Below are positions 14,803 through 59,127 of a DNA stretch of 64,000 nucleotides, piece after piece (the first letter of the stretch is position 1; each line of letters opens with the position of its first letter). The translations under genes and the position numbers were made by a program. The notes below the pieces were generated by a model. That model saw only the letters and a program-made list of their open reading frames with translations. It had not been told where the DNA came from and made no database searches. Source of the stretch: Escherichia coli (lineage in GTDB: Bacteria > Pseudomonadota > Gammaproteobacteria > Enterobacterales > Enterobacteriaceae); assembly GCF_030013205.1 (NCBI RefSeq), contig NZ_CP122648.1. The stretch is one strand, 5' to 3'.

Positions 14803-14807
14803 AAATA

Positions 14808-14838
14808 AGCCGGATAAAAAATAGCTTTATCCGGCACT
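14808..14838. terminator. hairpin between convergent cassette and corA (gccggataaaaaatagctttatccggc)
   Basis: Perfect 10-bp stem read directly; sits between two convergent stop codons. Confidence 0.5.
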
Positions 14839-14842
14839 CATA

Positions 14843-15793: not shown

Positions 15794-16162
15794 GACCGGG
15801 ACTCCCAATGCTTAAAATATCGGACAGTTCGGTGGGCACACAGAAACAAATTGGGTTTCAGACCATTAAACAGCCTGACTCAGCGCGACGGGAAAAATTG
15901 AGGTCGCTGACAACCGCTAAGGCTATCAGCAAAAAGGGATAGCCTTAGGAGTTGATCCTGGATGACAGGATAGTGAGCCAGTATCTACTGGGTGTGTCCA
16001 AGGCGAATGTCCTCTTAGAGTGATCGTGCGCGCATGTTACGCCAGCAAAATTTTGCCGTCAACACGCAACAGAACACCACAGAACAATAGTTGAACTTCG
16101 CGCTTTTTGGTACTCGTCAAGGTCGCTAACAGGATAAAAAAATCCCACATCCAGGACCTATA

Positions 16163-16927: not shown

Positions 16928-17009
16928 GCATTGTACACTCGAGGAGGCCAGACAAACTGGGACTGGCTACACAGCTGGAAAATCATCAGATAAATGAAGG
17001 GAAACAAAA

Positions 17010-17912: not shown

Positions 17913-17956
17913 GGTGCTGATGCGGAATGCGGTGTGGCGCACCGCATCCCGCAACG

Positions 17957-20119: not shown

Positions 20120-20177
20120 TGGCACCGCCGCGTAAAAATAGGTTGGGCGGAGAAGCGCAACGCCCTCCGCCAAAAAG

Positions 20178-20193
20178 CTGGGTATATATACAG
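20178..20193 (-). promoter_or_regulatory. LexA (SOS) box upstream of uvrD: CTGTATATATACCCAG
   Basis: Matches the CTGT-N8-ACAG SOS-box pattern; located 59 bp upstream of the uvrD start. Confidence 0.7.
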
Positions 20194-20202
20194 ATTTGCT
20201 GA

Positions 20203-20919
20203 TTATATCAGCGAGGTCAGAGATGCCAACCGGGAAATTTCCAGATGCGGGAGTAAACGGCTGTCCCAGGTTTGCATCAGATCGCCATTTTCCGGTCTGA
20301 TCCAACAAGCCTGCATTCCGCTGCGAATTGCCCCACCCACGTCAGTGGTGAGATCGTCCCCAACATGTAAGATCTCGCCGATCGGCACGTTGAGTTTTTC
20401 CGCAGCCAGAAAGTACATATCGCTGAACGGTTTTGAGCGCCCGTGCGGGCCAGCGCGCAGCACAAACTCAAAATAATCCCCCAAACCAAACAGTTCCGGC
20501 TGGGCGTTACCGTTGGTGATCGCCACCAGCGGCCATTTCTTCGCCAGCTGTTTTAAGGTGTCGTGGGTTTGCTGCGGGACATCGATTCGGCTGCGCCATT
20601 TGGCAAAGTTGATCATTGCCGCGTGTGCGCCTGCACTGGCTTCTTCGGCACTCAGCCCGGCGTCGAGCATGGCTTGTTCAATCGAACGAAAACGCCAGCG
20701 CGTCACGTCGTGATAAATCTCGGGTTCCGCTTCCCGTACCGCCTGGCGCAGGCGTTGCAGATCTTCATTCTGGAAGCTGCGCAGCGCCGGATGATAATTT
20801 TGCACAAAGGTAAGCGCCTCTCGCTCGGTGCGCAAAATCACCGGACGGTTATCGTAAAGGGTATCATCCAGGTCAAAGGTGAGCGCCGAGATGCGCCCCA
20901 AAGGCCGGTAAAAACGCAT
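20203..20919 (-). CDS. yigB: HAD-family phosphatase
   Basis: 238 aa; HAD motif LTFDLDDTL near N-terminus; between xerC and uvrD. Confidence 0.85.
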
Positions 20920-21815
20920 TATTTCCCCCGTTTGGCGCGTGGATGCGCCGCATCGTACACCGAGGCAAGGTGTTGAAAATCAAGATGAGTATAGATTTGC
21001 GTGGTGGAGAGGTTGGCATGACCCAGCAGCTCCTGCACACCACGAAGATCGCCGCTCGACTCCAGCATATGCGTAGCGAACGAGTGACGTAATTTATGCG
21101 GGTGAACGTGATTATTCAGCCCTTGTTTTATGCCCCATTCGGCAAAGCGTTTCTGCACATTACGCGCGGAGATACGCTTGCCCAGTTTCGACAGAAAAAG
21201 CGCGTCGTCTTCGCTACCAAACAGGTCGCGCAAATCAAGCCAGTGCTCAATCCACGCCACAGCGTTGCGACCAATCGGCAGGCGGCGCTCTTTGCTGCCT
21301 TTCCCCATCACCCACACTTCACCAGACTCCAGGTCGAGGTGTTTGATATCGAGCCCCACCAGTTCGGAAAGACGCAGACCCGCGCCGTACATCACTTCCA
21401 GCATTGCCCGATCGCGCACGGCGAGGGGATCGTTGATATCAATATCCAGCAGCCGATTCATATCGTCGACGTCGATGTTTTTCGGCAGATGACGCGGCGC
21501 TTTCGGTGCCGAAACACCTTTCGCCGGGTTAGCTTTGAGTTCGTTCTGGCTGACCAGCCAGTCAAAAAAGCTACGTAGCGCAGAAAGCCGTAACGCCAGA
21601 CTTGCAGCTCCCAGCCCTTTACGGCGACTGCGTACAGCGAAATTGCGCACCATCGTCACATCACATTGCTGCCAGCTTTGCAGGCCGTTTTCGCTGGCAA
21701 AATTGATGATCGCCTCAAGCTGACGCTGGTAGTTAAGCAGGGTTATCGGGCTTAGCTGGCGCTCCACGCTCAGATAACGTAGGTAGCGTTCTACATCGGT
21801 GTGTAAATCGGTCAT
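20919..21815 (-). CDS. xerC: tyrosine site-specific recombinase XerC (chromosome dimer resolution)
   Basis: 298 aa; tyrosine recombinase R..HxxR..Y features; conserved dapF-yigA-xerC-yigB operon. Confidence 0.93.
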
Positions 21816-32109: not shown

Positions 32110-33765
32110 ATGGAATTTTCGTTTTCACCCAAACTTCTTGTTGTGGCTGTCGCCGCCGCTCTTCCACTCATGGCCAACGCAGCAGATACCCCGTCAACCG
32201 CCACCGCACGCAAAGGCTTTGCCGGATACGATCACCCAAACCAGTATCTGGTTAAACCGGCGACCACTATTGCCGACAACATGATGCCTGTGATGCAGCA
32301 TCCTGCACAAGACAAAGAAACCCAGCAGAAGCTGGCAGAACTTGAGAAAAAAACCGGTAAGAAACCGAACGTGGTTGTTTTCTTGCTGGATGATGTGGGC
32401 TGGATGGATGTTGGCTTTAACGGCGGCGGCGTGGCGGTGGGTAACCCTACACCAGATATCGACGCCGTTGCCAGCCAGGGGCTGATTTTAACTTCGGCGT
32501 ATTCTCAACCGAGTTCTTCCCCAACCCGCGCCACGATTCTTACCGGACAATACTCCATCCACCACGGCATTCTGATGCCGCCAATGTACGGGCAACCGGG
32601 CGGTCTGCAAGGGTTAACCACTCTGCCGCAGTTGCTGCACGATCAGGGCTACGTCACTCAGGCCATCGGGAAATGGCATATGGGGGAAAACAAAGAGTCG
32701 CAGCCGCAGAACGTTGGCTTTGATGATTTCCGCGGCTTTAACTCGGTATCCGATATGTATACCGAATGGCGTGATGTTCACGTCAACCCGGAAGTCGCCC
32801 TGAGCCCGGATCGTTCTGAATACATCCAAAAACTGCCGTTCAGCAAAGATGACGTTCATGCCGTGCGCGGCGGTGAACAGGAAGCCATTGCCGACATTAC
32901 GCCGAAATATATGGAAGACCTGGATCAACGCTGGATGGAATATGGCGTTAAGTTCCTCGACAAGATGGCGAAGAGCGATAAGCCTTTCTTCCTCTACTAC
33001 GGCACTCGCGGCTGTCACTTCGATAACTACCCAAATGCGAAATATGCGGGTAGCTCTCCGGCGCGCACCTCTTACGGCGACTGCATGGTGGAGATGAACG
33101 ATATCTTCGCCAATCTGTATAAAGCACTGGAGAAAAACGGTCAGCTTGATAACACGCTGATTGTGTTCACCTCTGATAACGGTCCGGAAGCCGAAGTTCC
33201 GCCGCACGGTCGCACACCGTTCCGCGGTGCGAAAGGTTCTACATGGGAAGGCGGCGTTCGTGTGCCAACCTTCGTTTACTGGAAAGGCATGATCCAACCG
33301 CGTAAATCTGACGGTATTGTCGATCTGGCGGATCTCTTCCCAACCGCGCTGGATCTGGCGGGGCATCCTGGAGCGAAAGTGGCGAATTTAGTGCCGAAAA
33401 CCACCTTTATCGATGGTGTGGACCAGACATCTTTCTTCCTGGGAACAAATGGTCAGTCTAACCGTAAGGCCGAGCACTACTTCCTCAACGGTAAACTCGC
33501 TGCTGTGCGTATGGATGAGTTCAAGTATCACGTCCTGATTCAGCAACCTTACGCGTATACCCAGAGCGGGTATCAGGGTGGATTCACCGGCACAGTAATG
33601 CAAACGGCGGGATCGTCGGTGTTTAACCTGTACACCGATCCGCAGGAAAGCGACTCTATCGGCGTGCGCCATATCCCAATGGGTGTACCGCTACAGACCG
33701 AAATGCATGCGTATATGGAGATCCTGAAAAAATATCCACCACGCGCGCAGATTAAATCTGATTAA
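32110..33765 (+). CDS. aslA: arylsulfatase-family protein with signal peptide
   Basis: 551 aa; sulfatase motif with active-site Ser ([11 protein letters not shown]) rather than Cys. Confidence 0.9.
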
Positions 33766-33800
33766 GCCGGCGCTATCGCTACATCGGGCCACACTGACCT

Positions 33801-33832
33801 TGCCGGATGCGGCGTGAACGCCTTATCCGGCA
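33801..33832. repeat. REP element between aslA and aslB
   Basis: tgccggatgcggcgtgaacgccttatccggca is a canonical REP. Confidence 0.7.
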
Positions 33833-33845
33833 ATCAACCGCAGGC

Positions 33846-33870
33846 GGCCACAAAATGGCCGCTTTTTTTA
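33846..33870 (+). terminator. rho-independent terminator after aslA (gcggccacaaaatggccgc + T7)
   Basis: Hairpin followed by T run read directly. Confidence 0.6.
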
Positions 33871-35103
33871 CTTATTCACCACCATCAAATGCGCCTGCAT
33901 AATGTCGCTGGCCGGACGACCGTGCGCCAGCAAATCAGCCATTGCTTTAAGATATGGCGGTAGATGGCGGAAATAACGCTGATACCCGGCACACAAATAA
34001 TTCAGCCCCGGTTTGCCGCTGGCATCGAGCATAAAGCGGTGTTTCGGACAGCCTCCCCAGCACGCTTTTAACACGTTGCAACTGCGACACTGCGCCGGTA
34101 ACTGCTTAAATTTATCTTCACCAAACACCTGCTGTTGCGGGGAATCTACCATTTCTGCAATTGTCTGCTGAAGCATATTCCCCAGTCGATATTGCGGATA
34201 AACATAGTGATCGCAGGCGTAAACGTCACCGTTGTGCTCAACAATCACCGAGCGCCCACAGGTTGGCTGATGATGGCAAACCGCACCTGGCGCACCAACA
34301 AAATTGGCAAACGCCCATTCGATATTCATCACGAAAATCTTGCCGACGTCGCGTTTGATCCAGTGGTCGAATATCGCCACCAAAAATTCACCGAACTCAT
34401 CGGGGCGTACCGACCATTCCGTCAGTTCGCCCTGAATATCGCCGGGAGCATGTAGCTTAAGTCCAGCATGAGCAGCCGTTTCATCAGCCAGGCGCTCGAC
34501 CACCGGAATAAACTGGATGAACTCAGCGCCTGCATCACACAGAAAATCATAGACTTGCAAAGGTTGTAACGCACTGGTGCGATTAACGCAGACCAGCACG
34601 TTATAGTCGACATGATGTTTTTGCAGGAGCATCAGGGCACGCATCACCAGCTTATGCGTTGGTCTGCCGCCTTTGGTCACGCGATATTGATTGTGGATCT
34701 CAGCCGGACCATCCAGCGATAACCCAACAAGAAAATGATTTTCTGCCAGAAACGCACACCATTCGTCATCAAGCAGAACGCCGTTAGTCTGGAAGCTGTT
34801 ACTTATCTTCCTGCCAGCACCATATTTCGTCTGTAGCGCCACGGCACGGCGGTAAAAATCCAGCCCGAGTAACGTTGGTTCGCCGCCCTGCCAGGTAAAA
34901 GCCACTTCGTTTTGGGTTTCGCTGGCAGCGATATAGTGACGGACATACGCTTCCAGCGTGTCATCGTCCATATGCGTGACTGGCTTTTCGCGGTAAAGGG
35001 ATTGTTTTTCGAGATAAAAACAGTAGTCACAGTTCAGATTACAATCGGAACCGCTCGGTTTCGCCATCACATGAAAAGCACGCGTTGGAACCTGTTGCAG
35101 CAT
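33868..35103 (-). CDS. aslB: anaerobic sulfatase-maturating enzyme homolog (radical SAM)
   Basis: CxxxCxxC radical SAM motif (CNLNCDYC); trimmed to MLQQVPTRAFHV start. Confidence 0.88.
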   Translation of the reverse strand: MLQQVPTRAFHVMAKPSGSDCNLNCDYCFYLEKQSLYREKPVTHMDDDTLEAYVRHYIAASETQNEVAFTWQGGEPTLLGLDFYRRAVALQTKYGAGRKISNSFQTNGVLLDDEWCAFLAENHFLVGLSLDGPAEIHNQYRVTKGGRPTHKLVMRALMLLQKHHVDYNVLVCVNRTSALQPLQVYDFLCDAGAEFIQFIPVVERLADETAAHAGLKLHAPGDIQGELTEWSVRPDEFGEFLVAIFDHWIKRDVGKIFVMNIEWAFANFVGAPGAVCHHQPTCGRSVIVEHNGDVYACDHYVYPQYRLGNMLQQTIAEMVDSPQQQVFGEDKFKQLPAQCRSCNVLKACWGGCPKHRFMLDASGKPGLNYLCAGYQRYFRHLPPYLKAMADLLAHGRPASDIMQAHLMVVNK

Positions 35104-37364: not shown

Positions 37365-38105
37365 TCAGAGGTTGCCGGTGTAATGCCAGCGTAAATAACG
37401 CAGCAAACGAAGCTGACGCTTAATGCGGCTCGGCTGCGAAAGCAGGCGGTAGAGCCACTCCAGCCCCAGCGTTTGCCAGATTTTCGGTGCGCGTTTCACG
37501 TGACCGGTGAAAACATCGTAAGTCCCGCCAACGCCCATATACAGCGCATCTGGATGCACCAGACGGCAGTCGCGCATGAAGATCTCCTGCTTTGGCGATC
37601 CCATCGCAACGGTGACGATTTGCGCTCCGCTGGCATGAATGCGTTCAAACAGCGCCTGACGCTGCTCGGGTTTAAAATAACCATCCTGGCTGCCAACGAT
37701 ATTCACATTCCACTGGTTGCGCAGTTTAGCTTCAGTTTGCGCCAGCACTTCAGGTTTACCGCCCACAAGAAATACCGGTGTCCCTTCTTTGCCTGCGCGC
37801 GCCATCAGCTCTTCCCAGAGATCCGCCCCGGCAACGCGGGAAACCTGCGCCTGCGGGTACTTTTTACGTACTGAACGTACAACGCTGATGCCATCCGCAT
37901 ATTTAAATTCGGCAGCGTTAATTAACTCCCTGACCTCGGCGTTATCTTCAATGGTCAGCATTTTTTCAGCATTAATGGCAACCAGCGTTCCCTGCTTAAG
38001 CTGCCCGTCAGCGAACAGATAATCGAGGGCGTGCTGCATATCACGCCAACCGATCAACTGTAAGCCACGCAGCGTATAGGTCGGTGCCGTGGTGTTGTTA
38101 TTCAT
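37365..38105 (-). CDS. wecG: UDP-ManNAcA transferase (ECA lipid III synthesis)
   Basis: 246 aa; last gene of the ECA cluster. Confidence 0.88.
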
Positions 38106-38107
38106 TG

Positions 38108-39460
38108 TTATCCTTCAACCTGCGTCCGGAGCGATGATTTTGTTCGTTTATGAATGAGTCCGGCGCTTTCAAAAAGCCAGTACAACAGTTTTGCGATCAT
38201 CAGACATGCGCCGAAGACCACGATAAAAAAGACCACGCGTGAGACAAACGAATCCAGCCCTTCACGTGCCAGCACGATCATATTGAAGATCGCCCCGAAG
38301 CAGAAACTGTGCAATATCGCAGCCTTATAGCGATTAGTCTCGCGGTTGCCCAGCTCATACAGCCAGTCGAACCATTTGATGATCAGGCCAACCACAATCG
38401 CCCCGAGCGGGATGAACAACGCGCCGCCCATCACCACCAGTGAGCCTATAAGCGTAGGCGAGATCGCCAGCCCGGAGTGGTTATTCAGCACTTCCCAGGT
38501 AAAGTAGTTGGCGGTGTTCAGTACCATACTCGGGCGACCCGGCCACAGCCAGGAAGGGATAAAGACATAGAAATCGCGGACAATGGGAGCCAGACCCTGG
38601 AAGTCGATGTTGTCGTAGTTCTGCAACAGCAATGCCAGATTCTCCCACGGCGAAAAGGTATCGCGGGTGAGATAGAGAAACGTATAGAACGCTTCATCAC
38701 CGCTCACATTCATTCCATAGCGTTTTAGCGCCAGCCAGAACATGCCCACAATCCCCAGCACGCCCGCCGCCGCCAGCATCCACAACGAAATCCAGCCGCG
38801 AATAATGCCAATAAACAGGAAGATAGCGAATGCGATGATGATATTGGCACGAGTGCCGCCGACAATCATATAAGTCAGCAAGCCAAAGGCGACCGTGCTG
38901 ACGAGGAAAAACAGCCACGCTTTGCTGTCCTGGCGCAGAAAGTAGACCACCAGCATCGCCGGGATGAAAAAGTAAAAGAAGCGTTTTAACGCCACGCCGG
39001 AGACTTCACTGGAGAAGATCTGACTGTAGGAGTTAAGCCGGAACAGCAAAAAGCCGTTGTGCATGAAGAAGATGCCGACGCTTACCAGCGCGACGCCCAT
39101 CAGGATCACCCACGTGAGATTGGTCTCCACGCGGTTCATGGTAAACAGCGGACGGCGCGGTACATCGGCAACGCGTTTGCGTAGGCGGGTTTTGTAGGTG
39201 ACGTAGTAAACCGCGTAGAAGCAGCCCGCAGAAAGCAACGCCTGCAACAAGATTTCTGGCGGCGCGACACCAACATCAAAGCGAAATACCAGCACGCTGG
39301 TCAGCGGGAAGCCGAAGAAAAAGGTGAGCAAAAACAGCAATGAAAAGAAGACATTGAAGTTAAAACGCACACGGCGAAACTCAAACCAGGTCAGCGTGGC
39401 AATAAACAGCGTGCAGAGCAGCCAGACAACAAACAGGCCACTGAATTGCAGCAGACTCAT
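38108..39460 (-). CDS. wzyE: ECA polymerase
   Basis: 450 aa polytopic membrane protein. Confidence 0.88.
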
Positions 39461-40536
39461 GCAACCTCCCCGGCGGCAATCGCCAACGCCCGCTGCCAGC
39501 CTTGCAGATAGTTCGGGCTAAAGAAGGCAATGGTGTTTTTATCCACCGACGCCAACTGGCGCTGCGCTTCACGCACAATATCCTCGTTGAGATCGTCGGT
39601 AGTAAACAGCACCGGCAAATGCTGTTCCGTCATATCCTGCCAGAACGGATTTTCCCGGTTAAGCACACAAGGAATGCCCGCCTGAATTAGTAAGCACAGC
39701 GTACCAATGCCCTGCTGGCGGGCAAAAATAAAGTAACCAAGATCGCACTGACGAAGTAGCGCCAGATAGGCGTCAAATTCCAGTTTTTCGTTCAGAATTT
39801 GCAGATTTTCTTCGCTGAATAACGCCAGCCCCGCCTGACGAACTTCCTCGATGTACGCTTCGTTATTAGGCGGATATCCCATCGGCACCACCACTTTTAC
39901 CGTATCGCCAAATTGCTGATGAACGGCGCGCAAGGCAGCAATATGCTCATTGCTGCGGTCGCCGGAGTTCCCCACCAGAATGGTCATTTTCCCTTTACGT
40001 TGCCGATCATTCGCCATCATATTGAGTGAAGGGTCCATCCGCGTCGGGAAGTACAGCAGTTCGCCCCGCACCTTTGGATGCGTTTTGGCAAAAAAGCTCA
40101 AATCGCCGCGGGTGGCAAATACACAGCCGACTCGCTTTTGCGCCAGGCGACGTAGTGGGTAAAAAAGCTTATATCTCAAGCCACTGGAAAGCTCGTACAG
40201 GTCTGCCCCCCAGATATGCCAGTAAAACTGGCTGGGCTTAATGCCACCACTCAGCAGAGCCAGCCACAGTGTGGGATTGAACTGACCGTGGAAGAAAAAA
40301 CGCTGCTGACGGTTAGCTTTTGCTTTCGCGATGACCGCTTCCGCCAGCGATTTTTTCCCAGGGAAAAATTGCACAGAAAGCGCCGGACAGCTATCACTTA
40401 AGCCGTCGTCCTTGCCAACAACCATAAACTCGCGCGCGTGCTCGCTCGTCGCGGCCAGCGCGTCGTTGAAAAACCGCAGAACGGTTCGGTTATGGTGAGG
40501 GATATCCGATCCCAGTACGTGAATCAGTACAGTCAT
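39457..40536 (-). CDS. wecF: TDP-Fuc4NAc:lipid II transferase
   Basis: 359 aa; overlaps neighbours by 4 bp. Confidence 0.88.
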
Positions 40537-41783
40537 GCCCGCCTACGCCAGAGTAAAAACACGCCACAACAAAGAGAAAAATAGACGATATAGGTTGCCA
40601 TATAGGCCTGCGCCGCGCCCAGTGCACCATGCGCAGGGATTAGCCAGTGGGCAAATACCATCAATAAAGTGAACTGGCTGACTTCCGCCAGAATATAAAA
40701 CCGCAGTGACGCTTTGGCGATCACCAGATAACCAAAGACATAAGCGCCCACTTTTAACACATCACCCACTAACTGCCAGGCAAAGAGATCGCGCATAGCG
40801 GTAAATTTATTCGACAACAGCAGCCAGATAGCAAAATCACGCAGCAACCAGACGGTAAAACTCGCCGCCGCCACTGCCGGTAAGACGAATTTCAGCGATT
40901 TAACCACTTCCCGGGTGATATCGCGCTTTTCCGTTAGCCGCGACAACGTGGGCAGCAAATATACGCTGAACGATGCCGTAATAAATTGCAGGTAGGCATC
41001 GGAAATACTGCTCACCCCTTGCCAGATCCCCACCTCATCCCAGCTATACTGCGCCGCCAGCAGTTTACGCATCATGATGTAAGCAACAGGCAAGGTCACC
41101 GACGTAATCAACGCCATGAGCGTAAATTTGCTCAACTGCCCTGCCAGGCCGTTATCCCAGCTGGGTTTCAGATAGCTTAACGGGATTGCACCACGCTTAA
41201 TTAGCATGATGACGGCAGGAATCACCACCAGCGCGGGAATCAGCGCCAGACCCAGCAACGCCCCTTCATAACCGCCCAAACGGTAACTGACGTAGTACGC
41301 AAAAACGCCAATCAAGCTGCCGACAATCAGGGATAACGCATTACCTGCGGCATCGCGAAAGCCTTTCATCAACGCCAGTAACAGGTTGCCCCAGGCAATC
41401 CCCATTTGCACCAGCGCCACTAAACGCACCAGTCCCTGATAGTCGGTATTACCAAACAATCCCTGGCTGATTGGCGCTGCTGCCAGCACAAAAACCAGCG
41501 CCATTAGCGTAGAGAAGCCAAGTACCATCGCTGATGAAGTGCCGACCACGCGGCGCAGCTGTTGGGGATTATCATGGTACTGAGCAACGTATTTGGTTAC
41601 GCCATTAAAGATGCCAGCCCCGGCAAGCACGCCGAGCACGGTAATCAACTGGCGGAAATTTGCCGCCAGCCCAAGCCCCGCCGGACCAAATGACACCGCC
41701 AGCAACTTACCGACCAGTAACCCGGCACCAATCTTGACCAGTGTACTGGCCGCCGTCCACAAGGACGCTTTTGCCAACGACAT
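40533..41783 (-). CDS. wzxE: ECA lipid III flippase
   Basis: 416 aa polytopic membrane protein. Confidence 0.88.
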
Positions 41784-41784
41784 A

Positions 41785-42915
41785 TCAGGAGAAGTAGTTC
41801 AACAAAGTCGCAATTACCGTACGCTGATTGACGGGCGACAGGTTGTAGAACAGCGGCAGGCGCAGCAGGCGCTCACTCTCTTTGGTGGTGTAGCGATCTT
41901 CACCGTGGAACTCACCAAAGCGTTCCCCCGCAGGGCAACCGTGCAGCGGAATGTAATGGAACACCGCCATGATTTCCGCTTCTTTCAGAAAGTTAATCAA
42001 CGCGCTCCGGTCATCAATATCCCGCAGTTTAATGTAGAACATATGCGCGTTCTGCACGCAGCCATCGGGAATCGACGGCAGCTCGATACGCCCGGCTTTC
42101 GCCAGAGGTGCTAACGCATCGTAGTAGTTTTGCCACAGCGCCAGACGTTGCTGATTGATACGATCTGCTGCTTCCAGTTGCGCCCACAGGTACGCAGCTT
42201 GCAGATCGGACATCAAATAGCTGGAGCCGATATCGCGCCAGGTATATTTATCGACCTGACCACGGAAGAACTGGCTGCGGTTTGTGCCTTTTTCACGGAT
42301 GATCTCGGCTCGTTCGATCAACGCTTTATCGTTAATCAGCGTCGCGCCGCCTTCACCGCCCGCCGTGTAGTTTTTGGTTTCATGGAAGCTAAAGCAGCCA
42401 ATATGACCAATGGTTCCCAGTGCACGCCCTTTGTAAGTGGACATCACGCCCTGAGCAGCATCTTCCACCACAAACAGATTATGCTTTTTCGCCAACGCCA
42501 TAATGGTGTCCATTTCGCAGGCCACACCCGCGTAATGGACCGGCACGATAACGCGCGTTTTGTCGGTGATCGCTGCTTCAATCAACGTTTCGTCGATGTT
42601 CATGGTGTCCGGGCGAACATCCACAAAAACGATTTTTGCGCCACGCAGCACAAAGGCATTGGCAGTGGAGACAAAGGTGTAGCTCGGCATGATCACTTCA
42701 TCGCCAGGCTGGATATCGAGCAGCAGCGCCGCCATCTCCAGCGAAGCGGTGCAGGACGGCGTCAGTAACACTTTGGCGCTGCCAAAACGTTGCTCCAGCC
42801 ACTGCTGGCAGCGACGGGTAAAACCGCCATCGCCACACAGTTTGCCGCTACCCATTGCCGACTGCATATAGTCGAGTTCGGTTCCCACCACCGGCGGTGC
42901 GTTAAATGGAATCAT
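41785..42915 (-). CDS. wecE: TDP-4-keto-6-deoxy-D-glucose aminotransferase (DegT/ArnB family)
   Basis: 376 aa; PLP-dependent aminotransferase features. Confidence 0.9.
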   Translation of the reverse strand: MIPFNAPPVVGTELDYMQSAMGSGKLCGDGGFTRRCQQWLEQRFGSAKVLLTPSCTASLEMAALLLDIQPGDEVIMPSYTFVSTANAFVLRGAKIVFVDVRPDTMNIDETLIEAAITDKTRVIVPVHYAGVACEMDTIMALAKKHNLFVVEDAAQGVMSTYKGRALGTIGHIGCFSFHETKNYTAGGEGGATLINDKALIERAEIIREKGTNRSQFFRGQVDKYTWRDIGSSYLMSDLQAAYLWAQLEAADRINQQRLALWQNYYDALAPLAKAGRIELPSIPDGCVQNAHMFYIKLRDIDDRSALINFLKEAEIMAVFHYIPLHGCPAGERFGEFHGEDRYTTKESERLLRLPLFYNLSPVNQRTVIATLLNYFS

Positions 42916-42919
42916 GTGA

Positions 42920-43594
42920 TCACCTGTATAACCAGTACGCGGTGCTTTCTACATTCGCACCACTTTGTATGTATCGTTTAAGCGCGGCGGTGTTGCCCAT
43001 CTGGGTCGCCACCCGCAAAGTTGTTTTACCGCGAGCATACGCCCAGTTTAGCGCCGTTTGCATCAGCTCAGCACCTGCACCGCGTCCAGCCAGCAGGCCA
43101 ATTCGCGCATCTGTCGCATTGAGTTCCCGTAAAGAGACATAGCCGCGAATAGCGCCGGACGCCGCACGTAAAATCAGACATTGATGATCAAAGGTGCCGC
43201 GCACGGCATTTTCAATCCACTGTGCATAAAAGCGACCGCTGGCGTCAGGCGCATACCACGGCGCACGAAAACGGCTTTGCGCAAATGCGGCGCTGGCTAA
43301 CTGACGTAATGCGGGAATATCTGTCTCTTGTGCCACTTCTGCGCCGCTATCACCGACATTGTTCACGGGTAGCGCCAAATCAACTTCACCTTCTACCAGG
43401 GAGAATCCCAGCTGTTGCAGGGCATCCAGTTCACCCGTATTTGATGCCGCAATTTTGGCCTGCACCCGTGACCACGGCGCTAACGCGTCTGGCGTCAGGA
43501 GCGGTGCTTCAGACGTAATGCGCACAATGGCGCTGTTAACACCAAAGAAGGCGTTTTCCCAGGTTAGTGGCTCAATACTGGCGCGGACGGGCAT
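42920..43594 (-). CDS. wecD: TDP-fucosamine N-acetyltransferase (GNAT)
   Basis: 224 aa; GNAT-type motif region [19 protein letters not shown]. Confidence 0.85.
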
Positions 43595-43634
43595 TGTGTG
43601 ACTCCCTCAAAACAGTCATTCACGGTAATCAGTA

Positions 43635-44897
43635 TCAGCGCCAGACTCCTTTAGCATCGACGACATATTGCTGACGAACGTTGTCGCCGCTGATGGCTTT
43701 GAACTGGATATGATCGACCAGCATCACCAGCACGTCTGCCGTTGCCAGCGCCTCGTCAAGCTGCGCCAGAGTACAAAGCCCGGTCAGTTTTTTCGGCAAC
43801 TGGTGGATGTTAGGCTCAACAACCAGCGTTTCGCCGCTATGCCACTGGGCGATCAGTTCAGCGATTTCCATCGCCGGGCTTTCGCGCAGGTCATCAATAT
43901 TCGGTTTAAACGCCAGACCAAAGCAGGCGATTTTCAGTTCACTGGCGCGTTTATCGGTAGCAGCAAGGCAGTCGGCAACCGCCGCTTTCACCTGATCGAT
44001 AACCCAGAACGGTTTGTGATCGTTCACTTCGCGCGCAGTACGGATAAGCCGCGCCTGCTGGGGGTTCTGTGCCACGATAAACCACGGATCAACAGCGATG
44101 CAGTGACCGCCCACGCCAGGGCCAGGCTGAAGAATATTGACGCGAGGGTGGCGATTCGCCAGGCGAATCAGTTCCCAGACGTTAATTCCCTGATCGGCAC
44201 AAATCAGCGACAGTTCGTTAGCAAAAGCGATATTCACATCGCGGAAGCTGTTTTCGGTGAGCTTACACATTTCCGCCGTCCGCGAGTTAGTGACGACACA
44301 CTCACCTTCGAGGAAAATTTTGTACAGTTCGCTGGCGCGGGCCGAACAAACCGGCGTCATACCACCAATCACGCGATCGTTTTTAATCAGCTCGACCATT
44401 ACCTGGCCCGGTAACACGCGTTCCGGGCAGTAAGCAATGTTGACGTCCGCCTGCTCGCCCACCTGCTGCGGGAAAGTGAGATCTGGACGCATCTCTGCTA
44501 ACCATTCTGCCATCTTCTCGGTTGACCCCACCGGCGAGGTGGATTCAAGGATCACCAGCGCGCCTTTTTTCAGCACTGGCGCAATGGAGCGAGCAGCCGA
44601 TTCAACGTAGGTCATATCTGGCTCATGATCGCCTTTAAACGGCGTGGGTACAGCAATCAGCCAGGCATCCGCTTCAACTGGCGTCGTGCTCGCTCGTAAA
44701 AAACCGCCTTCTACGGCAGTTTTTACTACGCTCGCCAAATCAGGTTCGACGATATGGATTTCGCCACGATTGATGGTATCAACCGCATGTTTGTTGATAT
44801 CGACACCAATCACCTGTTTTTGCCGAGAGGCAAACGCAGCTGCTGTAGGCAGCCCGATGTAACCCAGTCCGATAACAGAAATGGTCGCAAAACTCAT
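43635..44897 (-). CDS. wecC: UDP-ManNAc dehydrogenase
   Basis: 420 aa; N-terminal Rossmann motif GLGYIGLP. Confidence 0.92.
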
Positions 44898-46024
44898 AGT
44901 GATATCCGATTATTTTTTAACGCTTCCAGAATGCGAGAGCATGCCTGACCATCACCATACGGGTTATGGGCGCGGCTCATAGCTTGATATTCGTTTTCGT
45001 CTTTTAAAAGACGCGTCACTTCCTCGACAATTCGCTGCTTATCCGTGCCTACCAGACGCACCGTACCCGCCGTCACCGCTTCCGGACGCTCAGTGGTATC
45101 GCGCATTACCAGCACCGGTTTCCCCAGCGAAGGCGCTTCTTCCTGAATGCCGCCTGAGTCGGTCAAAATCAGCCAGGCGTGGTTCATCAGCCAGACAAAC
45201 GGTAAATACTCCTGGGGATCGATCAGAATGACATTTTTCACGTGCCCCAGAATGCGATTGACCGGCTCTCTGACGTTCGGGTTGAGATGCACTGGATAGA
45301 CAATCTGGATGTCCTGGTGCGTGGTGGCGATGTCTGCCAGCGCATGGCAGATTTCTTCAAAGCCACGACCGAAGCTCTCACGCCTGTGACCGGTCACCAG
45401 AATCATTTTTTTATTGGGGTCGATAAACGGGTAATTTGCCGCCAGTTCTGAACGCAGCGTATCGCTGCTCATCACCTGGTCACGCACCCATAACAGTGCA
45501 TCAATAACTGTATTACCGGTAATGAAGATTCGGCTGTCAGCAACATTTTCACGCAGCAAGTTTTGCCGGGAAGTTTCGGTTGGAGAGAAGTGATACATCG
45601 CCAGATGCCCGGTCAATGTACGGTTAGCCTCTTCCGGCCACGGCGAATAGAGATCGCCCGTGCGCAGACCAGCCTCAACGTGACCAACAGGAATACGCTG
45701 ATAAAACGCCGCCAGGCTGGTTGCCAGCGTCGTCGTTGTGTCGCCGTGAACCAGCACGACGTCTGGTTTGAACTCGGCAAGAATAGGTTTTAGCCCTTCC
45801 AGAATCCGACAGGTTATCTCTGTCAGGCCCTGTCCTGGCTGCATTATGTTGAGATCGTAGTCAGGTACAATGGAAAAGAGTTTCAGCACCTGATCGAGCA
45901 TCTCCCGATGCTGCGCAGTGACGCAAACTTTAGCCTCAAAAAAAGGATCTTTTGCCAACGCATGCACCAACGGAGCCATCTTGATGGCTTCCGGGCGCGT
46001 ACCAAATACAGTCAGTACTTTCAC
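44894..46024 (-). CDS. wecB: UDP-GlcNAc 2-epimerase
   Basis: ORF track starts at 46066; trimmed to GTG start at 46024 giving [18 protein letters not shown] (376 aa). Confidence 0.88.
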
Positions 46025-46079
46025 ATCGATTCTCTTCGAATAAGCGGCGAGCGCCTTTGCGCTCACCGCAGCAGTGTTG

Positions 46080-47126
46080 CTATTTCGAGCAACGGCGGGT
46101 TAATGCGACACCAGCCCCGATCAGCCCCCCGACAATGCCCCACATAATCATCAGGAAGGCACGACGTGGGCTATCGCGTTTTACCGGTTCTTCCGGCGTA
46201 CGCAAATAGCGATAGGTCTGAAAACGCGGATCCAGGGTTGGACCAACATTCAGGGTGTTTAACATGGCCCGATTCTGATCATAGTCGAGATCAAAGGCCG
46301 GACCGACGGCCTGTAAATTTTCCAGTCGAGCCTGGAGCATTGGACGCCCAAGCAGGAACATTTCTGAATCAGGTAATTCCTCGGCAGGCACATCTGTCGC
46401 ACTGCGCGAAATATTATGCTGCTCAGCAATTTTCAGCGCCTGTTCAATACTGTTCATCCGGCGGTCGTAGATAGCTTTCGCCACCTCTTCCTGACGCTTC
46501 ACCTGAGCTTTCATCTGGATGGTGCGTGCCGCCCATGCACCTTTCAGCTCATCATTCAGATGGCTGGCTGCACGCTGGCTGGCAAAAGCAACATACTGAC
46601 GTAACAGGTTATTAGCGTCAGGCGCGGTTTCGGCAATCAGCTTCACGCTGTCATTGACCGCGCGGGTAAAGTCTCCGGGGATAAACTGGATGTTGTTAAT
46701 CATTTCATCCAGCAACGCCGCATCGGCTTTGCTGTTGCCCACCATCCGCTGCTTGTAATAGTCGGTTTGCAGCCAGAACTCTCTGCGGGTATCCCACGAG
46801 GCCAGTTGCATAACAAACTCTTTATAGGCTTCGTCCATGACCGATGGTTGGTCGGCAGAAGCCATGTTTGAACGGACATCCAGGTTACGCAAAAATTGCT
46901 GCTGCGAGTAATATCCCCCCAGCATATTCACCGTTGGACGATCGGTAATCGCCGTCGAGCTCCACTCCTGACGAGCAAAAAACGTATACGCCAGCGCGAT
47001 TAACGCAAACGCCAGCCCCATGCCAATAATCCATAGCTTCCCAGCCCACAAGGTACGAAACAACCCACGAATATCCAGTTCATTTTCAGCGTCTTCGGCC
47101 GGTTTCCCAGGCATTGGTTGTGTCAT
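46080..47126 (-). CDS. wzzE: ECA chain length determinant
   Basis: 348 aa from ATG at 47126; N- and C-terminal TM segments. Confidence 0.88.
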
Positions 47127-47137
47127 CACATCCTCAT

Positions 47138-48241
47138 TTATTTGGTTAAATTGGGGCTGCCACCACGATTTCTACGCAGTCTGCGTTTTACGCGCTTAAT
47201 AAAGCGAGCAACTTTCCAGGCACGCTTAATGCAATATCCATAGAGGAAGAATGCTAGCAAAAAGAGCACCAGCATGACCCACTCCGGGACAAAATGAGAA
47301 TATTCTGCCAGCACCCCAATGGAGGCGAGCAGAGCTGCGGCAAGGGTAATCAGCACAAACGCCTGGCGGGAAGTAAACCCGGCACGCATGATCAAATGGT
47401 GAATATGCTGGCGATCAGGAGAGAACGGACTCATGCCTTTACGCAGGCGACGGTACATAATCGCCACCATATCCATTAGCGGAATGGCGATTATCCACAA
47501 AGCGGTAACCGGGCTGATGGGATGGGTTTTGCCCTGGGTCGTTTCGAGCAGGATCCAGATAACGGTAAAACCAATCAGCGTACTGCCCGCATCACCCATA
47601 AAGACTTTGTAGCGGCGACCCAGGATACCAAGGTTAAGCATGATGTATGGCAGGATGGCGGCGATCATCGCAAAACACCAGATTGCAAGGCTGGTTTGCC
47701 CGTCGAACCACAAAATCATACCGATTGCTGCAAACGAGACGCAGGACAGCCCGCCCAGCAAGCCATCAATGCCATCAACCATGTTGAACGCATTAATGGC
47801 CGCCCAGACGGCAAATAGCGTCAGGACGTAGCCAAACGGTCCGAGCACCATCTCCCAGGAGCCAAAGATATAACCCAGGCTACTGAGATAAAGTTTTCCG
47901 AACACCATCATAACAATGCCAACAGCGGCCTGTATGGTGGCACGGATTTTTACGCTGATATCAAAACGGTCATCCAGCGCGCCAATGAAAACAAGCACAC
48001 CGGCACAAGCGAGATAGAGAGATGCATGCGGAATATAGTAATCGACAATTCCGAACGTGAAGCAAATCCCTGCGTAAACCGAAATCCCCCCAACGAGAGG
48101 TATCAATCCCTGGTGACGTTTGCGGAAGTTTGGTTTATCCACTAAACCGACTTTTTTTGCCACCTTACGGGCAAAAAACAGAAACAGTGTCGTGAATAAA
48201 AAAATACTGATGAGATCAGTACTCACTGTCAGTAAATTCAC
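47138..48241 (-). CDS. wecA: UDP-GlcNAc:undecaprenyl-phosphate GlcNAc-1-phosphate transferase
   Basis: 367 aa polytopic membrane protein; first gene of the ECA cluster downstream of rho. Confidence 0.9.
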   Translation of the reverse strand: MNLLTVSTDLISIFLFTTLFLFFARKVAKKVGLVDKPNFRKRHQGLIPLVGGISVYAGICFTFGIVDYYIPHASLYLACAGVLVFIGALDDRFDISVKIRATIQAAVGIVMMVFGKLYLSSLGYIFGSWEMVLGPFGYVLTLFAVWAAINAFNMVDGIDGLLGGLSCVSFAAIGMILWFDGQTSLAIWCFAMIAAILPYIMLNLGILGRRYKVFMGDAGSTLIGFTVIWILLETTQGKTHPISPVTALWIIAIPLMDMVAIMYRRLRKGMSPFSPDRQHIHHLIMRAGFTSRQAFVLITLAAALLASIGVLAEYSHFVPEWVMLVLFLLAFFLYGYCIKRAWKVARFIKRVKRRLRRNRGGSPNLTK

Positions 48242-53444: not shown

Positions 53445-55466
53445 TTATTTCCCTCGTTTTGCCGCCATCATCGCTTTCAGATTCGCCAGATGGCTTTGCC
53501 CTTTCTGCATCCGTTCTTCGGCGCTGACCACTTTGCGCTCCTGTTCCCAAATCAGATCATCCTGCGGCAGCTCCAGCAAAAAGCGGCTCGGCTCCGGGCG
53601 CACCAGTTCGCCGTACTGACGGCGTTCTTTACACAGCGTAAAGGTCAATTCCTTCTGGGCGCGGGTAATGCCGACATAGGCCAGCCGCCGCTCCTCATCG
53701 ATATTATCTTCATCGATACTGCTCTGGTGCGGCAAAAACCCTTCTTCCATACCGACCATGTAGACATAAGGAAACTCCAGCCCTTTCGACGCGTGCAGAG
53801 TCATCAGTTGTACCTGATCTAACTCTTCATCACTCTCGCCGCGCTCCATCATGTCGCGCAGAGTAAAGCGCGTCACCACCTGGGTGAGCGTCATCGGCTC
53901 ATCCAGTTCGCTACCTTCCAGCATCTCCGTCATCCAGCTAAACAGTTGGTTGACGTTCTTCATGCGCATTTCGGCGGCTTTCGGGCTGGGCGATGTTTCG
54001 TACAGCCAGGATTCATAATCCATGCCGTGGATCAGATCGCGTACCGCGGCAATCGGCTCCCGCTCCGCCAGACGCTGGATTTCTGCCAACCAATGAGTGA
54101 AGCGGGTCAATGCTTCATAACCACGTCCGCTAAGCGTCTGACTCAGGCCCATATCAAAGCTGGCGGTAAACATGCTTTTATTGCGCGTCATCGCCCACTC
54201 ACCCAGCTTTTTCAGCGTAGCCGGGCCAATCTCTCGCTTCGGCGTGTTAACAATACGCAGAAATGCGCTGTCATCGTCCGGGTTAGTCAGCACGCGCAGA
54301 TAAGCCAGCAAATCCTTGATTTCAGGACGAGAGAAAAACGACGTACCACCAGAAATTTTGTACGGGATGCGGTTTTGCATCAGGAATTTTTCAAACACCC
54401 GCGACTGATGGTTACCGCGATAAAGAATGGCGTAATCTTTGTACTGCGTTTTATTGACGAAGTGATGCGCGATCAGCTCGCCGGTGACTCTCTCGGCTTC
54501 ATGTTCTTCGTTATTCGCGCTTAAAACTTTTAGCTCCGCGCCATAGCCCAGTTCGGAGAACAGACGCTTTTCAAAGACGTGCGGGTTATTGGCAATGAGG
54601 ATGTTCGCCGCTTTCAGAATACGTCCGGAAGAGCGGTAGTTCTGCTCAAGCTTAATCACCTTCAGTGCCGGGAAATCCTGACTCAGCAGCACCAGGTTTT
54701 GCGGACGTGCACCGCGCCAGGAGTAGATCGACTGGTCGTCATCGCCAACTACGGTAAAGCGCGCGCGGCTGCCCACCAGCAGTTTCACCAGTTCATACTG
54801 GCTGGTGTTGGTGTCCTGATACTCATCCACCAGCAGGTAGCGAATTTTGTTCTGCCAGCGCTCGCGGACTTCTTCATTGCGTTGCAGCAGCAACGTCGGC
54901 AATAAAATCAGATCATCGAAGTCGAGAACGTTACAGGCTTTCAGGTGTGCATCATACAGCCCATAACAATGGGCAAAAATACGGTCCCGCTCGCCAATCG
55001 CACTGGCTGCCGCCTGGGACGGTGTTTTGAGATCGTTCTTCCAGTTAGAGATGGTCGAAATCAGCTGTTGCAGGAGGACTTTGTCATCTTCAATCAGCCC
55101 CTCGGTCAGCTCTTTAAGCAACGCCAGCTGATCGGTGTCATCAAACAGCGAAAAGTTCGCTTTCATCCCCAACGCCGCATACTCACGCTTGATGATATCC
55201 AGCCCCAGCGTGTGGAAGGTGGAAATCATCAGCCCGCGCGCCTCTTTGCGCCCCAGCGTCTGCCCGACACGCTCTTTCATCTCGCGCGCCGCCTTATTGG
55301 TAAAGGTCACCGCCGCGATATGTCGCGCCTGATAACCGCAACCGCGGATCAGATGGGCGATTTTATTGGTGATGACACGAGTTTTACCGGAACCCGCGCC
55401 TGCCAGCACCAGGCAGGGGCCGGTAACGAATTCGACAGCTTGTTGTTGGCCGGGGTTTAGACGCAT
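53445..55466 (-). CDS. rep: ATP-dependent DNA helicase Rep
   Basis: 673 aa from [31 protein letters not shown]; UvrD/Rep family. Confidence 0.93.
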
Positions 55467-55683
55467 AGGTGTATTGCTCAATCTTCGAACGGGGGGGAGG
55501 ATTGTAGCAGAATCGCATTTGAATGTGACCGAGTGAAAACCGCTAACCGGATGGCTGCGGATGTTTAAATCAGAGAGGGAAGGCCGAAACCGGAGTTCAT
55601 CATGAATCCATTAGACTTAGAAAATATCGGGTCGTAACGTTGTGTTATTACTTTTTCAGAGTTTACTAAGGAGAGGTTTACTC

Positions 55684-56133
55684 GTGGCGATTAATTTCAG
55701 CCCCAAGGTTGGTGAAATACTGGAATGCAACTTTGGTAACTATCCTGTTAGCCAGAATGGACAGTTCAGCACGACGTATTACGATGGCCGCATTCCACCT
55801 GAGATGATAAAAAATAGGTTGGTTGTCGTGCTCAACGGAAAAATTAATGGCAACGCATGTATCGTCGTTCCATTATCAACCACTCGCGACCATGACAAGT
55901 TAAATCGTGGAATGCATGTTGAAATAGCCAGTAATGTTATCAATGACCTGCAATTCTTTGATCAGCAGATACGTTGGGCTAAAGCCGACCTGGTACAACA
56001 AGTCAGTCGAAACCGATTAAACAGAGCAAGGACTTATCGGGGGTATCTTAATCAATGTTTGCCACATGAGTTGGTTGCAGACATACAGAGGGCAGTCATC
56101 AAGTCAATCAATGCCATATCGCTCATAAATTGA
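55684..56133 (+). CDS. yifN: PemK/MazF-fold protein (toxin-like), no adjacent antitoxin ORF
   Basis: GTG start 8 nt after AGGAG; motif RLVVVLNGKINGNACIVVPLSTT resembles the MazF/PemK core; same position as K-12 yifN. Confidence 0.55.
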   Translation: MAINFSPKVGEILECNFGNYPVSQNGQFSTTYYDGRIPPEMIKNRLVVVLNGKINGNACIVVPLSTTRDHDKLNRGMHVEIASNVINDLQFFDQQIRWAKADLVQQVSRNRLNRARTYRGYLNQCLPHELVADIQRAVIKSINAISLIN

Positions 56134-56207
56134 CAATAAAATCACCATCCCCGATAATGACTCTGTAGCCCATAGAGGCCCTAAGTTTTCTCCCCTTGAG
56201 GGACCTG

Positions 56208-56232
56208 CGAAGCCCGGATTTTCCGGGCTTTT
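56208..56232 (+). terminator. rho-independent terminator after yifN (gaagcccggattttccgggctttt)
   Basis: Hairpin plus T run read directly. Confidence 0.6.
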
Positions 56233-56260
56233 GCCATATATGTCCCCCCTCCCTGACTGA

Positions 56261-56566
<306 letters not shown>

Positions 56567-56568
56567 TA

Positions 56569-56596
56569 GCAAGGCCTTCTCCGGGAGAAGGCCTTG
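56569..56596. terminator. bidirectional hairpin between convergent ppiC and ilvC (aaggccttctccgggagaaggcctt)
   Basis: Perfect palindrome read directly. Confidence 0.6.
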
Positions 56597-56611
56597 AACT
56601 CTGAATCGCAC

Positions 56612-58087
56612 TTAACCCGCAACAGCAATGCGTTTCATATCTGTCATATAGCCGCGCAGTTTCTTACCTACCTGCTCAATCGCATGACTGCGAATCGCTT
56701 CGTTCACATCACGCAACTGCGCGTTATCTACCGCACCTTCCGGAATAGCTTTACCCAGGTCGCCCGGTTGCAGCTCTGCCATAAACGGTTTCAGCAGCGG
56801 CACACAAGCGTAAGAGAACAGATAGTTACCGTACTCAGCGGTATCAGAGATAACCACGTTCATTTCGTACAGACGCTTACGGGCGATGGTGTTGGCAATC
56901 AGCGGCAGTTCGTGCAGTGATTCATAGTAAGCAGACTCTTCAATGATGCCGGAATCAACCATGGTTTCGAACGCCAGTTCAACGCCCGCTTTCACCATTG
57001 CGATCATCAGTACGCCTTTATCGAAGTACTCCTGCTCGCCGATTTTGCCTTCATACTGCGGCGCGGTTTCAAACGCGGTTTTGCCGGTCTCTTCACGCCA
57101 GGTCAGCAGTTTCTTATCGTCGTTGGCCCAGTCCGCCATCATGCCGGAGGAGAATTCGCCGGAGATGATGTCGTCCATATGTTTCTGGAACAGCGGTGCC
57201 ATGATCTCTTTCAGCTGTTCAGACAGCGCGTAAGCACGCAGTTTCGCCGGGTTAGAAAGACGGTCCATCATCAGGGTGATGCCGCCCTGTTTCAGCGCTT
57301 CGGTGATGGTTTCCCAACCGAACTGAATCAGTTTTTCTGCGTATGCCGGATCGGTGCCTTCTTCCACCAGTTTGTCGAAGCACAGCAGAGAACCAGCCTG
57401 CAACATACCGCACAGGATGGTTTGCTCGCCCATCAGGTCAGATTTCACTTCCGCAACAAAAGAGGATTCCAGCACGCCCGCACGGTGACCGCCGGTTGCA
57501 GCCGCCCATGCTTTAGCAATCGCCATGCCTTCGCCTTTCGGATCGTTTTCCGGGTGAACGGCAATCAGCGTCGGTACGCCGAATCCACGTTTGTATTCTT
57601 CACGCACTTCGGTGCCTGGGCATTTCGGCGCAACCATCACCACGGTGATGTCTTTACGGATCTGCTCGCCCACTTCGACGATGTTGAAACCGTGCGAGTA
57701 ACCCAGCGCCGCGCCGTCTTTCATCAGTGGCTGTACGGTGCGCACTACATCAGAGTGCTGCTTGTCCGGCGTCAGGTTAACCACCAGATCCGCCTGCGGG
57801 ATCAGTTCTTCGTAAGTACCAACTTTAAAACCGTTTTCGGTCGCTTTACGCCAGGATGCGCGCTTTTCGGCAATCGCTTCTTTACGCAGAGCGTAGGAGA
57901 TATCGAGACCAGAATCACGCATGTTCAGGCCCTGGTTCAGACCCTGTGCACCACAACCGACGATGACTACTTTTTTACCCTGAAGGTAGCTCGCGCCATC
58001 GGCGAATTCATCGCGCCCCATAAAGCGACATTTGCCCAGCTGTGCCAGCTGCTGGCGCAGATTCAGTGTATTGAAGTAGTTAGCCAT
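56612..58087 (-). CDS. ilvC: ketol-acid reductoisomerase
   Basis: ORF track is over-extended to 565 aa; trimmed to [23 protein letters not shown] start (491 aa). Confidence 0.95.
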
Positions 58088-58236
58088 GGTGATTCCTCGT
58101 GATGTTGTGCTTCTTATTGTTCGGTTCGCGTTTGCGAGAATGAATTCACTATATGACAGGAAATTCATTGCGGAAATTGATATATTCACAACATCACATT
58201 GCAATTTCTGCAACGCCAACATTGAGGGCTGCGCCA
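58088..58236. promoter_or_regulatory. ilvY-ilvC divergent promoter/operator region
   Basis: Short spacer between divergently transcribed LysR regulator and its target, a known arrangement in E. coli; operator sites not individually mapped. Confidence 0.5.
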
Positions 58237-59127
58237 TTGGATTTACGCGATCTGAAAACCTTCCTGCATCTGGCGGAAAGCCGCCATTTTGGCCGTAGCG
58301 CGCGAGCAATGCACGTTAGCCCGTCTACGCTTTCGCGACAAATACAGCGCCTGGAAGAAGATCTCGGTCAGCCGCTGTTTGTGCGTGATAACCGCACGGT
58401 AACGCTGACGGAAGCGGGCGAAGAACTGCGCGTTTTCGCCCAGCAAACGCTGTTGCAATATCAGCAATTGCGTCACACCATCGATCAGCAAGGGCCGTCG
58501 CTCTCTGGCGAATTACATATCTTCTGCTCGGTGACCGCTGCCTACAGCCATCTGCCGCCGATTCTGGATCGCTTCCGCGCGGAACACCCGTCAGTGGAGA
58601 TCAAACTCACTACCGGTGATGCGGCCGATGCGATGGAAAAGGTGGTCACTGGCGAAGCGGATCTGGCGATTGCGGGGAAACCGGAAACCTTACCCGGCGC
58701 AGTGGCGTTTTCGATGCTGGAGAATCTGGCGGTGGTGCTGATTGCTCCCGCGCTGCCCTGCCCGGTGCGTAATCAGGTATCTGTCGAAAAGCCCGACTGG
58801 TCTACAGTGCCGTTTATCATGGCCGATCAGGGACCGGTACGCCGCCGCATTGAACTGTGGTTTCGGCGTAACAAAATCAGCAACCCAATGATTTACGCCA
58901 CGGTTGGCGGGCATGAAGCGATGGTATCGATGGTGGCGCTCGGCTGTGGCGTGGCGCTGTTGCCGGAAGTGGTGCTGGATAACAGCCCGGAACCGGTGCG
59001 TAACCGCGTGATGATTTTAGAGCGCAGTGATGAAAAAACGCCGTTTGAGCTGGGCGTGTGTGCGCAAAAAAAGCGGCTGCATGAGCCGCTGATTGAGGCA
59101 TTCTGGAAGATTTTGCCGAACCACTAA
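58237..59127 (+). CDS. ilvY: LysR-family activator of ilvC
   Basis: Likely TTG start at 58237 giving [31 protein letters not shown] track extends further upstream. Confidence 0.85.

Follow-up and report, generated by a model that had tools for sequence, protein, structure and literature searches.

A ten-gene wec cluster without rffG and rffH in a clade of Escherichia coli and its inferred dependence on the O-antigen locus

Introduction

The Fuc4NAc branch of ECA synthesis, i.e. WecE, WecD and WecF, requires dTDP-4-keto-6-deoxyglucose. On the stretch of DNA analysed here, 64,000 nucleotides long and hereafter called the window, wecC runs directly into wecD, which raises the question of whether rffG (dTDP-glucose 4,6-dehydratase) and rffH (glucose-1-phosphate thymidylyltransferase) are truly missing, how such a cluster arose and which enzymes would then provide the precursor. 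The original prediction had it that the wecC stop and the wecD start lie only 40 bp apart in a cluster of about 10.9 kb, that K-12 carries rffG and rffH at this very place, and that rmlA/rmlB paralogues, presumably in the O-antigen cluster, would tie ECA synthesis to the O locus.

The analysis leads to a reading that is considered very probable, namely a natural ten-gene E. coli wec operon stemming from one ancestral loss, marking a clade and drawing its precursor from RfbA and RfbB of the O locus. One ancestral event would have removed rffG and rffH and left a 40-bp spacer, which would give wecD an ATG start and a ribosome-binding site of its own, and the resulting allele would mark a single clade made up of porcine O139:H1-type strains, O102:H6 strains and their relatives. 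In these bacteria, RfbA/RmlA and RfbB/RmlB from the O-antigen cluster would make dTDP-4-keto-6-deoxyglucose, which WecE and WecD would turn into dTDP-Fuc4NAc, to be added by WecF to lipid II.

Gene content and organization of the wec cluster

The window is a piece of E. coli chromosome, 100% identical to several complete genomes over positions 42000-45500. Gene coordinates were taken from the list of open reading frames and from the RefSeq annotation of a genome identical over that interval, both being in agreement. From wecA to wecG, the cluster spans positions 37365-48241 (10,877 bp, as anticipated) and lies entirely on the minus strand, where the order reads rho, wecA, wzzE, wecB, wecC, rffC/wecD, rffA/wecE, wzxE, rffT/wecF, wzyE, wecG and thrP/yifK.

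All the genes named below are annotated in the identical genome, wecC and rffC/wecD being in addition present as such in the list of open reading frames. The GlcNAc-1-P transferase of the first ECA step is encoded by wecA (47138-48241; NCBIfam TIGR02380, 576 bits against a cut-off of 326), followed by wzzE for the ECA chain-length regulator (46080-47126; NF008645, 694 bits), wecB for the UDP-GlcNAc 2-epimerase (44894-46024; TIGR00236, 619 bits) and wecC for the UDP-ManNAc dehydrogenase (43635-44897), which is full length with 420 aa (NF008286, 856 bits over residues 1-420 of 420). Beyond the spacer come rffC/wecD, with an ATG start, for the dTDP-Fuc4N acetyltransferase (42920-43594; NF008212, 356 bits against a cut-off of 219), rffA/wecE for the dTDP-4-keto-6-deoxyglucose aminotransferase (41785-42915; TIGR02379, 737 bits), wzxE for the lipid III flippase (40533-41783; also matched in NCBIfam), rffT/wecF for the Fuc4NAc transferase (39457-40536; NF002752, 853 bits against a cut-off of 754), wzyE for the ECA polymerase (38108-39460; NCBIfam match) and, as last gene of the cluster, wecG for the ManNAcA transferase (37365-38105; NCBIfam match). 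Leaving rffG and rffH aside, the ten wec genes thus follow one another from rho to yifK, all of them intact and in the K-12 order. Each of the ten proteins has its full length and exceeds the curated cut-off of its NCBIfam model, nine of these models being equivalogs and that of WecA being of the 'exception' type.

Compared with K-12, differences are mostly synonymous in wecE (18 nt, 1 aa), wzxE (25 nt, 3 aa) and wecC (36 nt, 5 aa). For WecD, 11 nucleotide differences give six amino acid differences, one of which is the start codon, and the proportion of amino acid changes is above that of the neighbouring genes.

The wecC-wecD junction

In K-12 MG1655, the order is wecC-rffG-rffH (the latter annotated rfbA)-rffC, so the gene order given in the original prediction was right; wecC and rffG overlap there at ATGA and wecD starts with a GTG inside the end of rffH. 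In pairwise alignment with K-12, the sequence falls into two collinear blocks (98.3% and 97.5% identity) that are separated by 1,944 bp in K-12 and by 40 bp in the window. This spacer, at 43595-43634 exactly where the prediction had placed the gap, reads TACTGATTACCGTGAATGACTGTTTTGAGGGAGTCACACA on the gene strand and stands in place of rffG and rffH. A tblastn search of RffG, RffH, RfbB and RfbA against the 64-kb window found no homologue, the best match (E=0.03) falling within wecC, so the two genes are not concealed under misassigned open reading frames.

Within the spacer, a Shine-Dalgarno-like GAGGGAG (43602-43608, minus strand) located 7 nt upstream of the wecD ATG is the presumed ribosome-binding site. 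Since the spacer offers both GAGGGAG and ATG, whereas the GTG of K-12 is buried in rffH, translation of wecD in the window would be independent of any coupling to rffH. Scanning the junction revealed neither promoter-like nor terminator-like sites.

Distribution within E. coli

A 240-bp query laid over the junction is covered in one piece, at 100% identity, in 116 of 5,426 complete E. coli genomes, and the 40-mer itself occurs once per genome in exactly those 116, with no other match, even partial, at E<=10 in 28 Gb of E. coli sequence. Conversely, K-12 rffG+rffH used as query is matched at 95% identity or more in 5,309 records and at only 60-80%, by rfb-type copies on rfbB/rfbA, in 154 records, which we read as the 116 chromosomes plus 38 plasmid places. 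The 116 carriers comprise porcine O139:H1-type strains, i.e. the lineage of the window itself, O102:H6 strains and a few others; O102:H6 is taken here to be ST405 and O139:H1 to be the ST1 edema-disease lineage. No literature was found that ties ST405 or phylogroups to the loss of rffG/rffH or that reports this E. coli clade. Because every complete E. coli genome devoid of rffG/rffH shares the same 40-mer junction, the losses in this set point to a single ancestral event. The long form, with rffG and rffH, is found in E. coli, E. albertii and Escherichia sp. representatives and, as those representatives all have it, the presence of both genes can be considered ancestral in Escherichia. The loss of rffG and rffH is confirmed as a real, lineage-specific case of a known shortened-cluster variant.

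Over positions 1-13 kb, the window is 100% identical to porcine K_EC180, ETEC17xx/40xx/63xx and the O139:H1 strains W13-16 and P15-25, and only 98.5% identical to O102-type strains. When set against the O102 strain 50579417, long identical tracts at 14-33 kb and 40-45 kb are broken by SNP-rich patches, located at window positions 2000-13000, 33000-35000, 55000-59000 and 61000-64000, where the density rises to 38 SNPs per kb at most. In between, stretches of about 20 kb show no more than a handful of SNPs. The result is a recombination mosaic around the wec region and the usual clonal-frame-plus-recombination picture of related lineages.

Short-form clusters in other Enterobacteriaceae

The original prediction overrated the rarity of such a layout. 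Among the wec loci of 80 Enterobacteriaceae species representatives, retrieved with WecC as query, wecC is directly followed by wecD in 42, i.e. about half of them, by rffG-rffH in 37 and by rffG only in one, and a ten-gene 'ECA1' cluster without rffG and rmlA2 has been published for Cronobacter sakazakii, its significance being stated as unknown (Ogrodzki and Forsythe, 2015; PMC4599207). The 42 short-form loci include those of all Enterobacter species, Klebsiella michiganensis, Raoultella planticola and several Citrobacter, as well as Lelliottia, Leclercia, Kosakonia, Phytobacter, Buttiauxella, Pseudescherichia and Superficieibacter. The intermediate form belongs to Citrobacter amalonaticus ku-bf3 (locus 4763-6509), where rffG is kept, rffH is absent and wecD comes directly after rffG.

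Short and long forms differ within genera. Besides, the junctions vary, with stop/start overlap or abutment in Enterobacter and spacers of 30-80 bp containing rffG 5' remnants in Raoultella and Klebsiella; because short-form junctions differ between taxa, rffG and rffH appear to have been lost many times, independently. Regarding common descent with other genera, no junction similar to that of the window was found among the 42 short-form loci.

Origin of the 40-bp spacer

To speak of one clean deletion would oversimplify the event, because the spacer is not just a leftover piece of E. coli rffG or rffH, and it gives no alignment with E. coli rffG 5' or rffH 3' sequence. Its first 12-13 nt (ATA CTG ATT ACC G) read like rffG codons 4-8 (ILIT) with other codon choices, as in some other genera, and its last 12 nt or so resemble GGAGTTAC, the ribosome-binding region upstream of K-12 wecD, while no source was detectable for the middle in the 80 Enterobacteriaceae wec loci or in all complete E. 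coli genomes. Searching the spacer by blastn-short and local alignment against these 80 loci, the 37 long-form rffG 5'/rffH 3' ends and the window returned chance matches of 12 nt at most, no partial copy that could have served as a template for the 40-mer was found elsewhere in complete E. coli genomes at E<=10, and an exact 25-mer from the spacer is absent from the genomes of 100,044 species. At the junction, which the original prediction had suggested checking for deletion scars, the repeat search gave short chance repeats only, with no IS ends, target-site duplications or useful microhomology. An apparent donor junction in Pseudocitrobacter faecalis was discarded, the 70%-identity alignment consisting mostly of conserved flanks.

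Next to the spacer, a tract at the 3' end of wecC (43653-43708, minus strand) shows 11 differences from K-12 in 56 bp, that is about 20% as compared with about 2% for the rest of the region. At 95% identity or more, this tract is present in only 117 complete genomes, one of them being GF4-3 (NZ_CP053258.1), isolated from guinea fowl in Gambia, in which the window-type last 460 bp or so of wecC are followed by a normal rffG-rffH (locus 4160-4700). GF4-3 is the only rffG/rffH-positive complete genome with a window-type wecC end, and it is either related to the state that preceded the deletion or the product of recombination.

These features bear on the possibility that the short allele was imported by homologous recombination from an enterobacterium already endowed with adjacent wecC and wecD, and was then spread vertically within the clade. 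In favour of such an import, the spacer does not align with the relevant ends of E. coli rffG or rffH, it begins like rffG codons 4-8 with the codon choices of some other genera, the adjacent 56 bp of wecC diverge far more from K-12 (about 20%) than the rest of the region (about 2%), and short-form clusters are common in other genera. On the other hand, 0 of the 42 sampled short-form junctions resemble that of the window, the 25-mer from the spacer occurs in none of the 100,044 species' representatives, and GF4-3 combines the divergent wecC tract with rffG/rffH, so the tract need not have come with the deletion; the argument that a divergent wecC 3' end proves import is weakened by this same genome. 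Import is rated as a rather doubtful, if tenable, explanation. The spacer may derive either from a short allele that had already formed in an unsampled relative and was then imported, or from a deletion in a rare E. coli allele followed by further change.

dTDP-sugar supply from the O-antigen locus

The O locus lies outside the window, and rfbA and rfbB were looked for in the closest complete genomes. In K_EC180 (NZ_CP062203.1), 100% identical to window positions 1-13000, the O139 O-antigen cluster begins with an intact rfbB-rfbD-rfbA-rfbC, just where the original prediction expected rmlA/rmlB to be; its RfbB and RfbA score above the NCBIfam cut-offs and share 74% identity with K-12 RffG and 68% with RffH, respectively. 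In the same O139 cluster, wzy (O-antigen polymerase) is annotated as frameshifted (11062-12299), which may mean that the strain is truly semi-rough or that the sequence contains an error. In the O102 strains 50579417 and E686, the O locus carries rfbBDAC, and in E09, whose locus is an O45 variant, rfbB and rfbA sit at opposite ends.

Extending the search to the whole clade, a chimeric query made of the junction, a K-12 rfbB fragment and a K-12 rfbA fragment finds at least two places in each of the 116 genomes. The rffG+rffH query matches one place spanning rfbB through rfbA in 111 of the 116, and even in the weakest record rfbB is covered over its full length. Altogether, an rfbB homologue is found at the O-antigen locus in 116 out of 116 junction genomes and rfbA is confirmed in at least 112, its presence in the other four being deduced from their resemblance to E09. 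With the chimeric query, genomes of the O139-type lineage of the window give three places; about one third of the junction-bearing O102-type genomes listed give five places instead of three (e.g. NZ_CP033884.1, NZ_CP021202.1 and NZ_CP027134.1), which suggests a second rfbB/rfbA-like pair on the chromosome.

That RmlA and RmlB can substitute for RffH and RffG goes back to Marolda and Valvano (1995), according to the citing passages of PMC7439462 and PMC12212991, and the evidence for functional substitution covers K-12/O7 (PMC7439462) and Salmonella (PMC12136496). In the latter, neither the rffG nor the rfbB deletion has an effect by itself, and defects in shape, bile and virulence appear only when both genes are deleted (PMC12136496); more generally, laboratory single mutants of rffG or rffH are compensated by rfbB or rfbA (PMC7439462, PMC12136496, PMC12773781). 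By analogy, the rfb enzymes would feed ECA in the present clade, so ECA synthesis would depend on the O-antigen locus, and in these strains the dTDP-sugars of O-antigen and ECA alike are probably made through the O-locus rfbA and rfbB alone. The link between ECA and O locus put forward in the original prediction is supported in this sense, flux and ECA production in the lineage being deduced from published genetics. As dTDP-L-rhamnose exerts feedback inhibition on RmlA (PMC12773781), the supply of ECA precursor in the clade should be governed by the regulation of the O-antigen pathway.

Whether this link is strong enough to constrain the serotype is a further matter. Losing rffG and rffH might lock ECA to the O locus to such an extent that only clusters with both rmlA and rmlB are tolerated, both genes being kept even when the O locus decays, as in ST2747; this is put forward tentatively, as a speculative extension. 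In ST2747 (NZ_CP007394.1; O locus at 10998-21487), the flippase gene and gmd are truncated, no wzy is annotated and a single glycosyltransferase is left, yet rfbB-rfbD-rfbA-rfbC are intact; this one case agrees with the rml genes having been kept for ECA once the O-antigen had decayed. With the rffG+rffH query, rfb-type copies are found in about half of all E. coli genomes, with a median of two places per genome. The fact that four differing O loci all have rfb copies is only suggestive of a constraint, because about half of E. coli carry them anyway (about 0.5^4 for four O loci).

Alternatively, the lineage could be effectively ECA-defective, the O-antigen enzymes supplying too little precursor and the cluster being on its way to decay, as the disappearance of the dedicated genes and the relatively many amino acid changes in WecD might hint. 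This is most improbable, given that none of the ten remaining genes is shortened and all match equivalog models, that their annotation is likewise intact in the listed genomes of the clade, that paralogue redundancy has been demonstrated (PMC7439462, PMC12136496) and that the clade is successful and widespread. Dead-end ECA intermediates, such as those of a block after lipid II, are moreover reported to do harm by sequestering undecaprenyl phosphate (PMC12826051). As for a relocation of rffG/rffH elsewhere in the genome, or a gap due to assembly or ORF calling, it has nothing in its favour beyond an a priori possibility and can practically be discarded, since the window is free of any rffG/rffH homologue, the best match to K-12 rffG+rffH in junction-bearing genomes reaches only 60-80% at rfbB/rfbA, and the junction is no assembly artefact because it is identical in 116 independently finished complete genomes.

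Other loci in the window

Two further loci of the window deserve a mention. At its very start (1-1079, plus strand), the window opens in the 3' part of a gene annotated in a related genome as 'TssD' (Hcp), with 377 aa and thus well beyond the length of a normal Hcp; a Pfam scan of the 167-aa C-terminal extension, which ends at position 505, gave no match, and behind it come two small ORFs, paralogous to each other, of 85 aa (502-759) and 81 aa (834-1079). Judging from this arrangement, the region looks like an Hcp-toxin fusion with its immunity genes. Between rarD and corA (13466-14802, plus strand) stand two genes assigned to the 'YPO3983 family' and the 'DUF943 family' in the annotation of a related genome. 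K-12 presumably has yigF/yigG in this place, and the rarD-corA interval may be a variable locus.

Implications

Even within E. coli, the wec operon does not always have the 12 genes of its textbook form, and rffG/rffH are often dispensable across Enterobacteriaceae. In practical terms, the 40-mer is a unique, single-copy marker of a clade in which O102:H6 strains of clinical importance are found together with porcine O139:H1 strains of the edema-disease/ETEC type. As O-antigen and ECA in this clade probably have no other dTDP-sugar route than the O-locus rfbA and rfbB, mutant phenotypes, essentiality calls from transposon sequencing and the effects of RmlA/RmlB inhibitors should differ from those in K-12. 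Should the tentative lock between ECA and O locus hold, inhibiting RmlA/RmlB or no longer expressing the O locus would stop the synthesis of O-antigen and of ECA alike, with undecaprenyl phosphate caught in lipid II, and multidrug-resistant O102:H6 as well as porcine O139:H1 strains would be unusually vulnerable. The clade also provides a natural test of whether the loss of a paralogue constrains O-antigen switching.

Comparison with known systems

With the 12-gene wec/rff operon of K-12, the cluster of the window shares its chromosomal location, flanked by rho and yifK/thrP, and ten genes out of twelve in unchanged order, at 97.5-98.3% identity; it differs by the lack of rffG and rffH and by a wecD with an ATG and its own SD-like sequence instead of a GTG overlapping rffH. 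With ECA1 of Cronobacter and the short forms of other genera, it has in common the gene content, the architecture and the direct succession of wecC and wecD, whereas the junction sequence is different and a trait that is species-wide there is restricted in E. coli to a minority clade of about 2%. With the known RmlA/RmlB-RffH/RffG redundancy, it shares the two reactions that yield dTDP-4-keto-6-deoxyglucose. Unlike laboratory rffG/rffH mutants, the state is fixed in nature and, at least in the O139-type lineage, the O-locus copies are the only recognisable source. In other words, this E. coli clade is a fresh example of an already described variant rather than a new kind of system.
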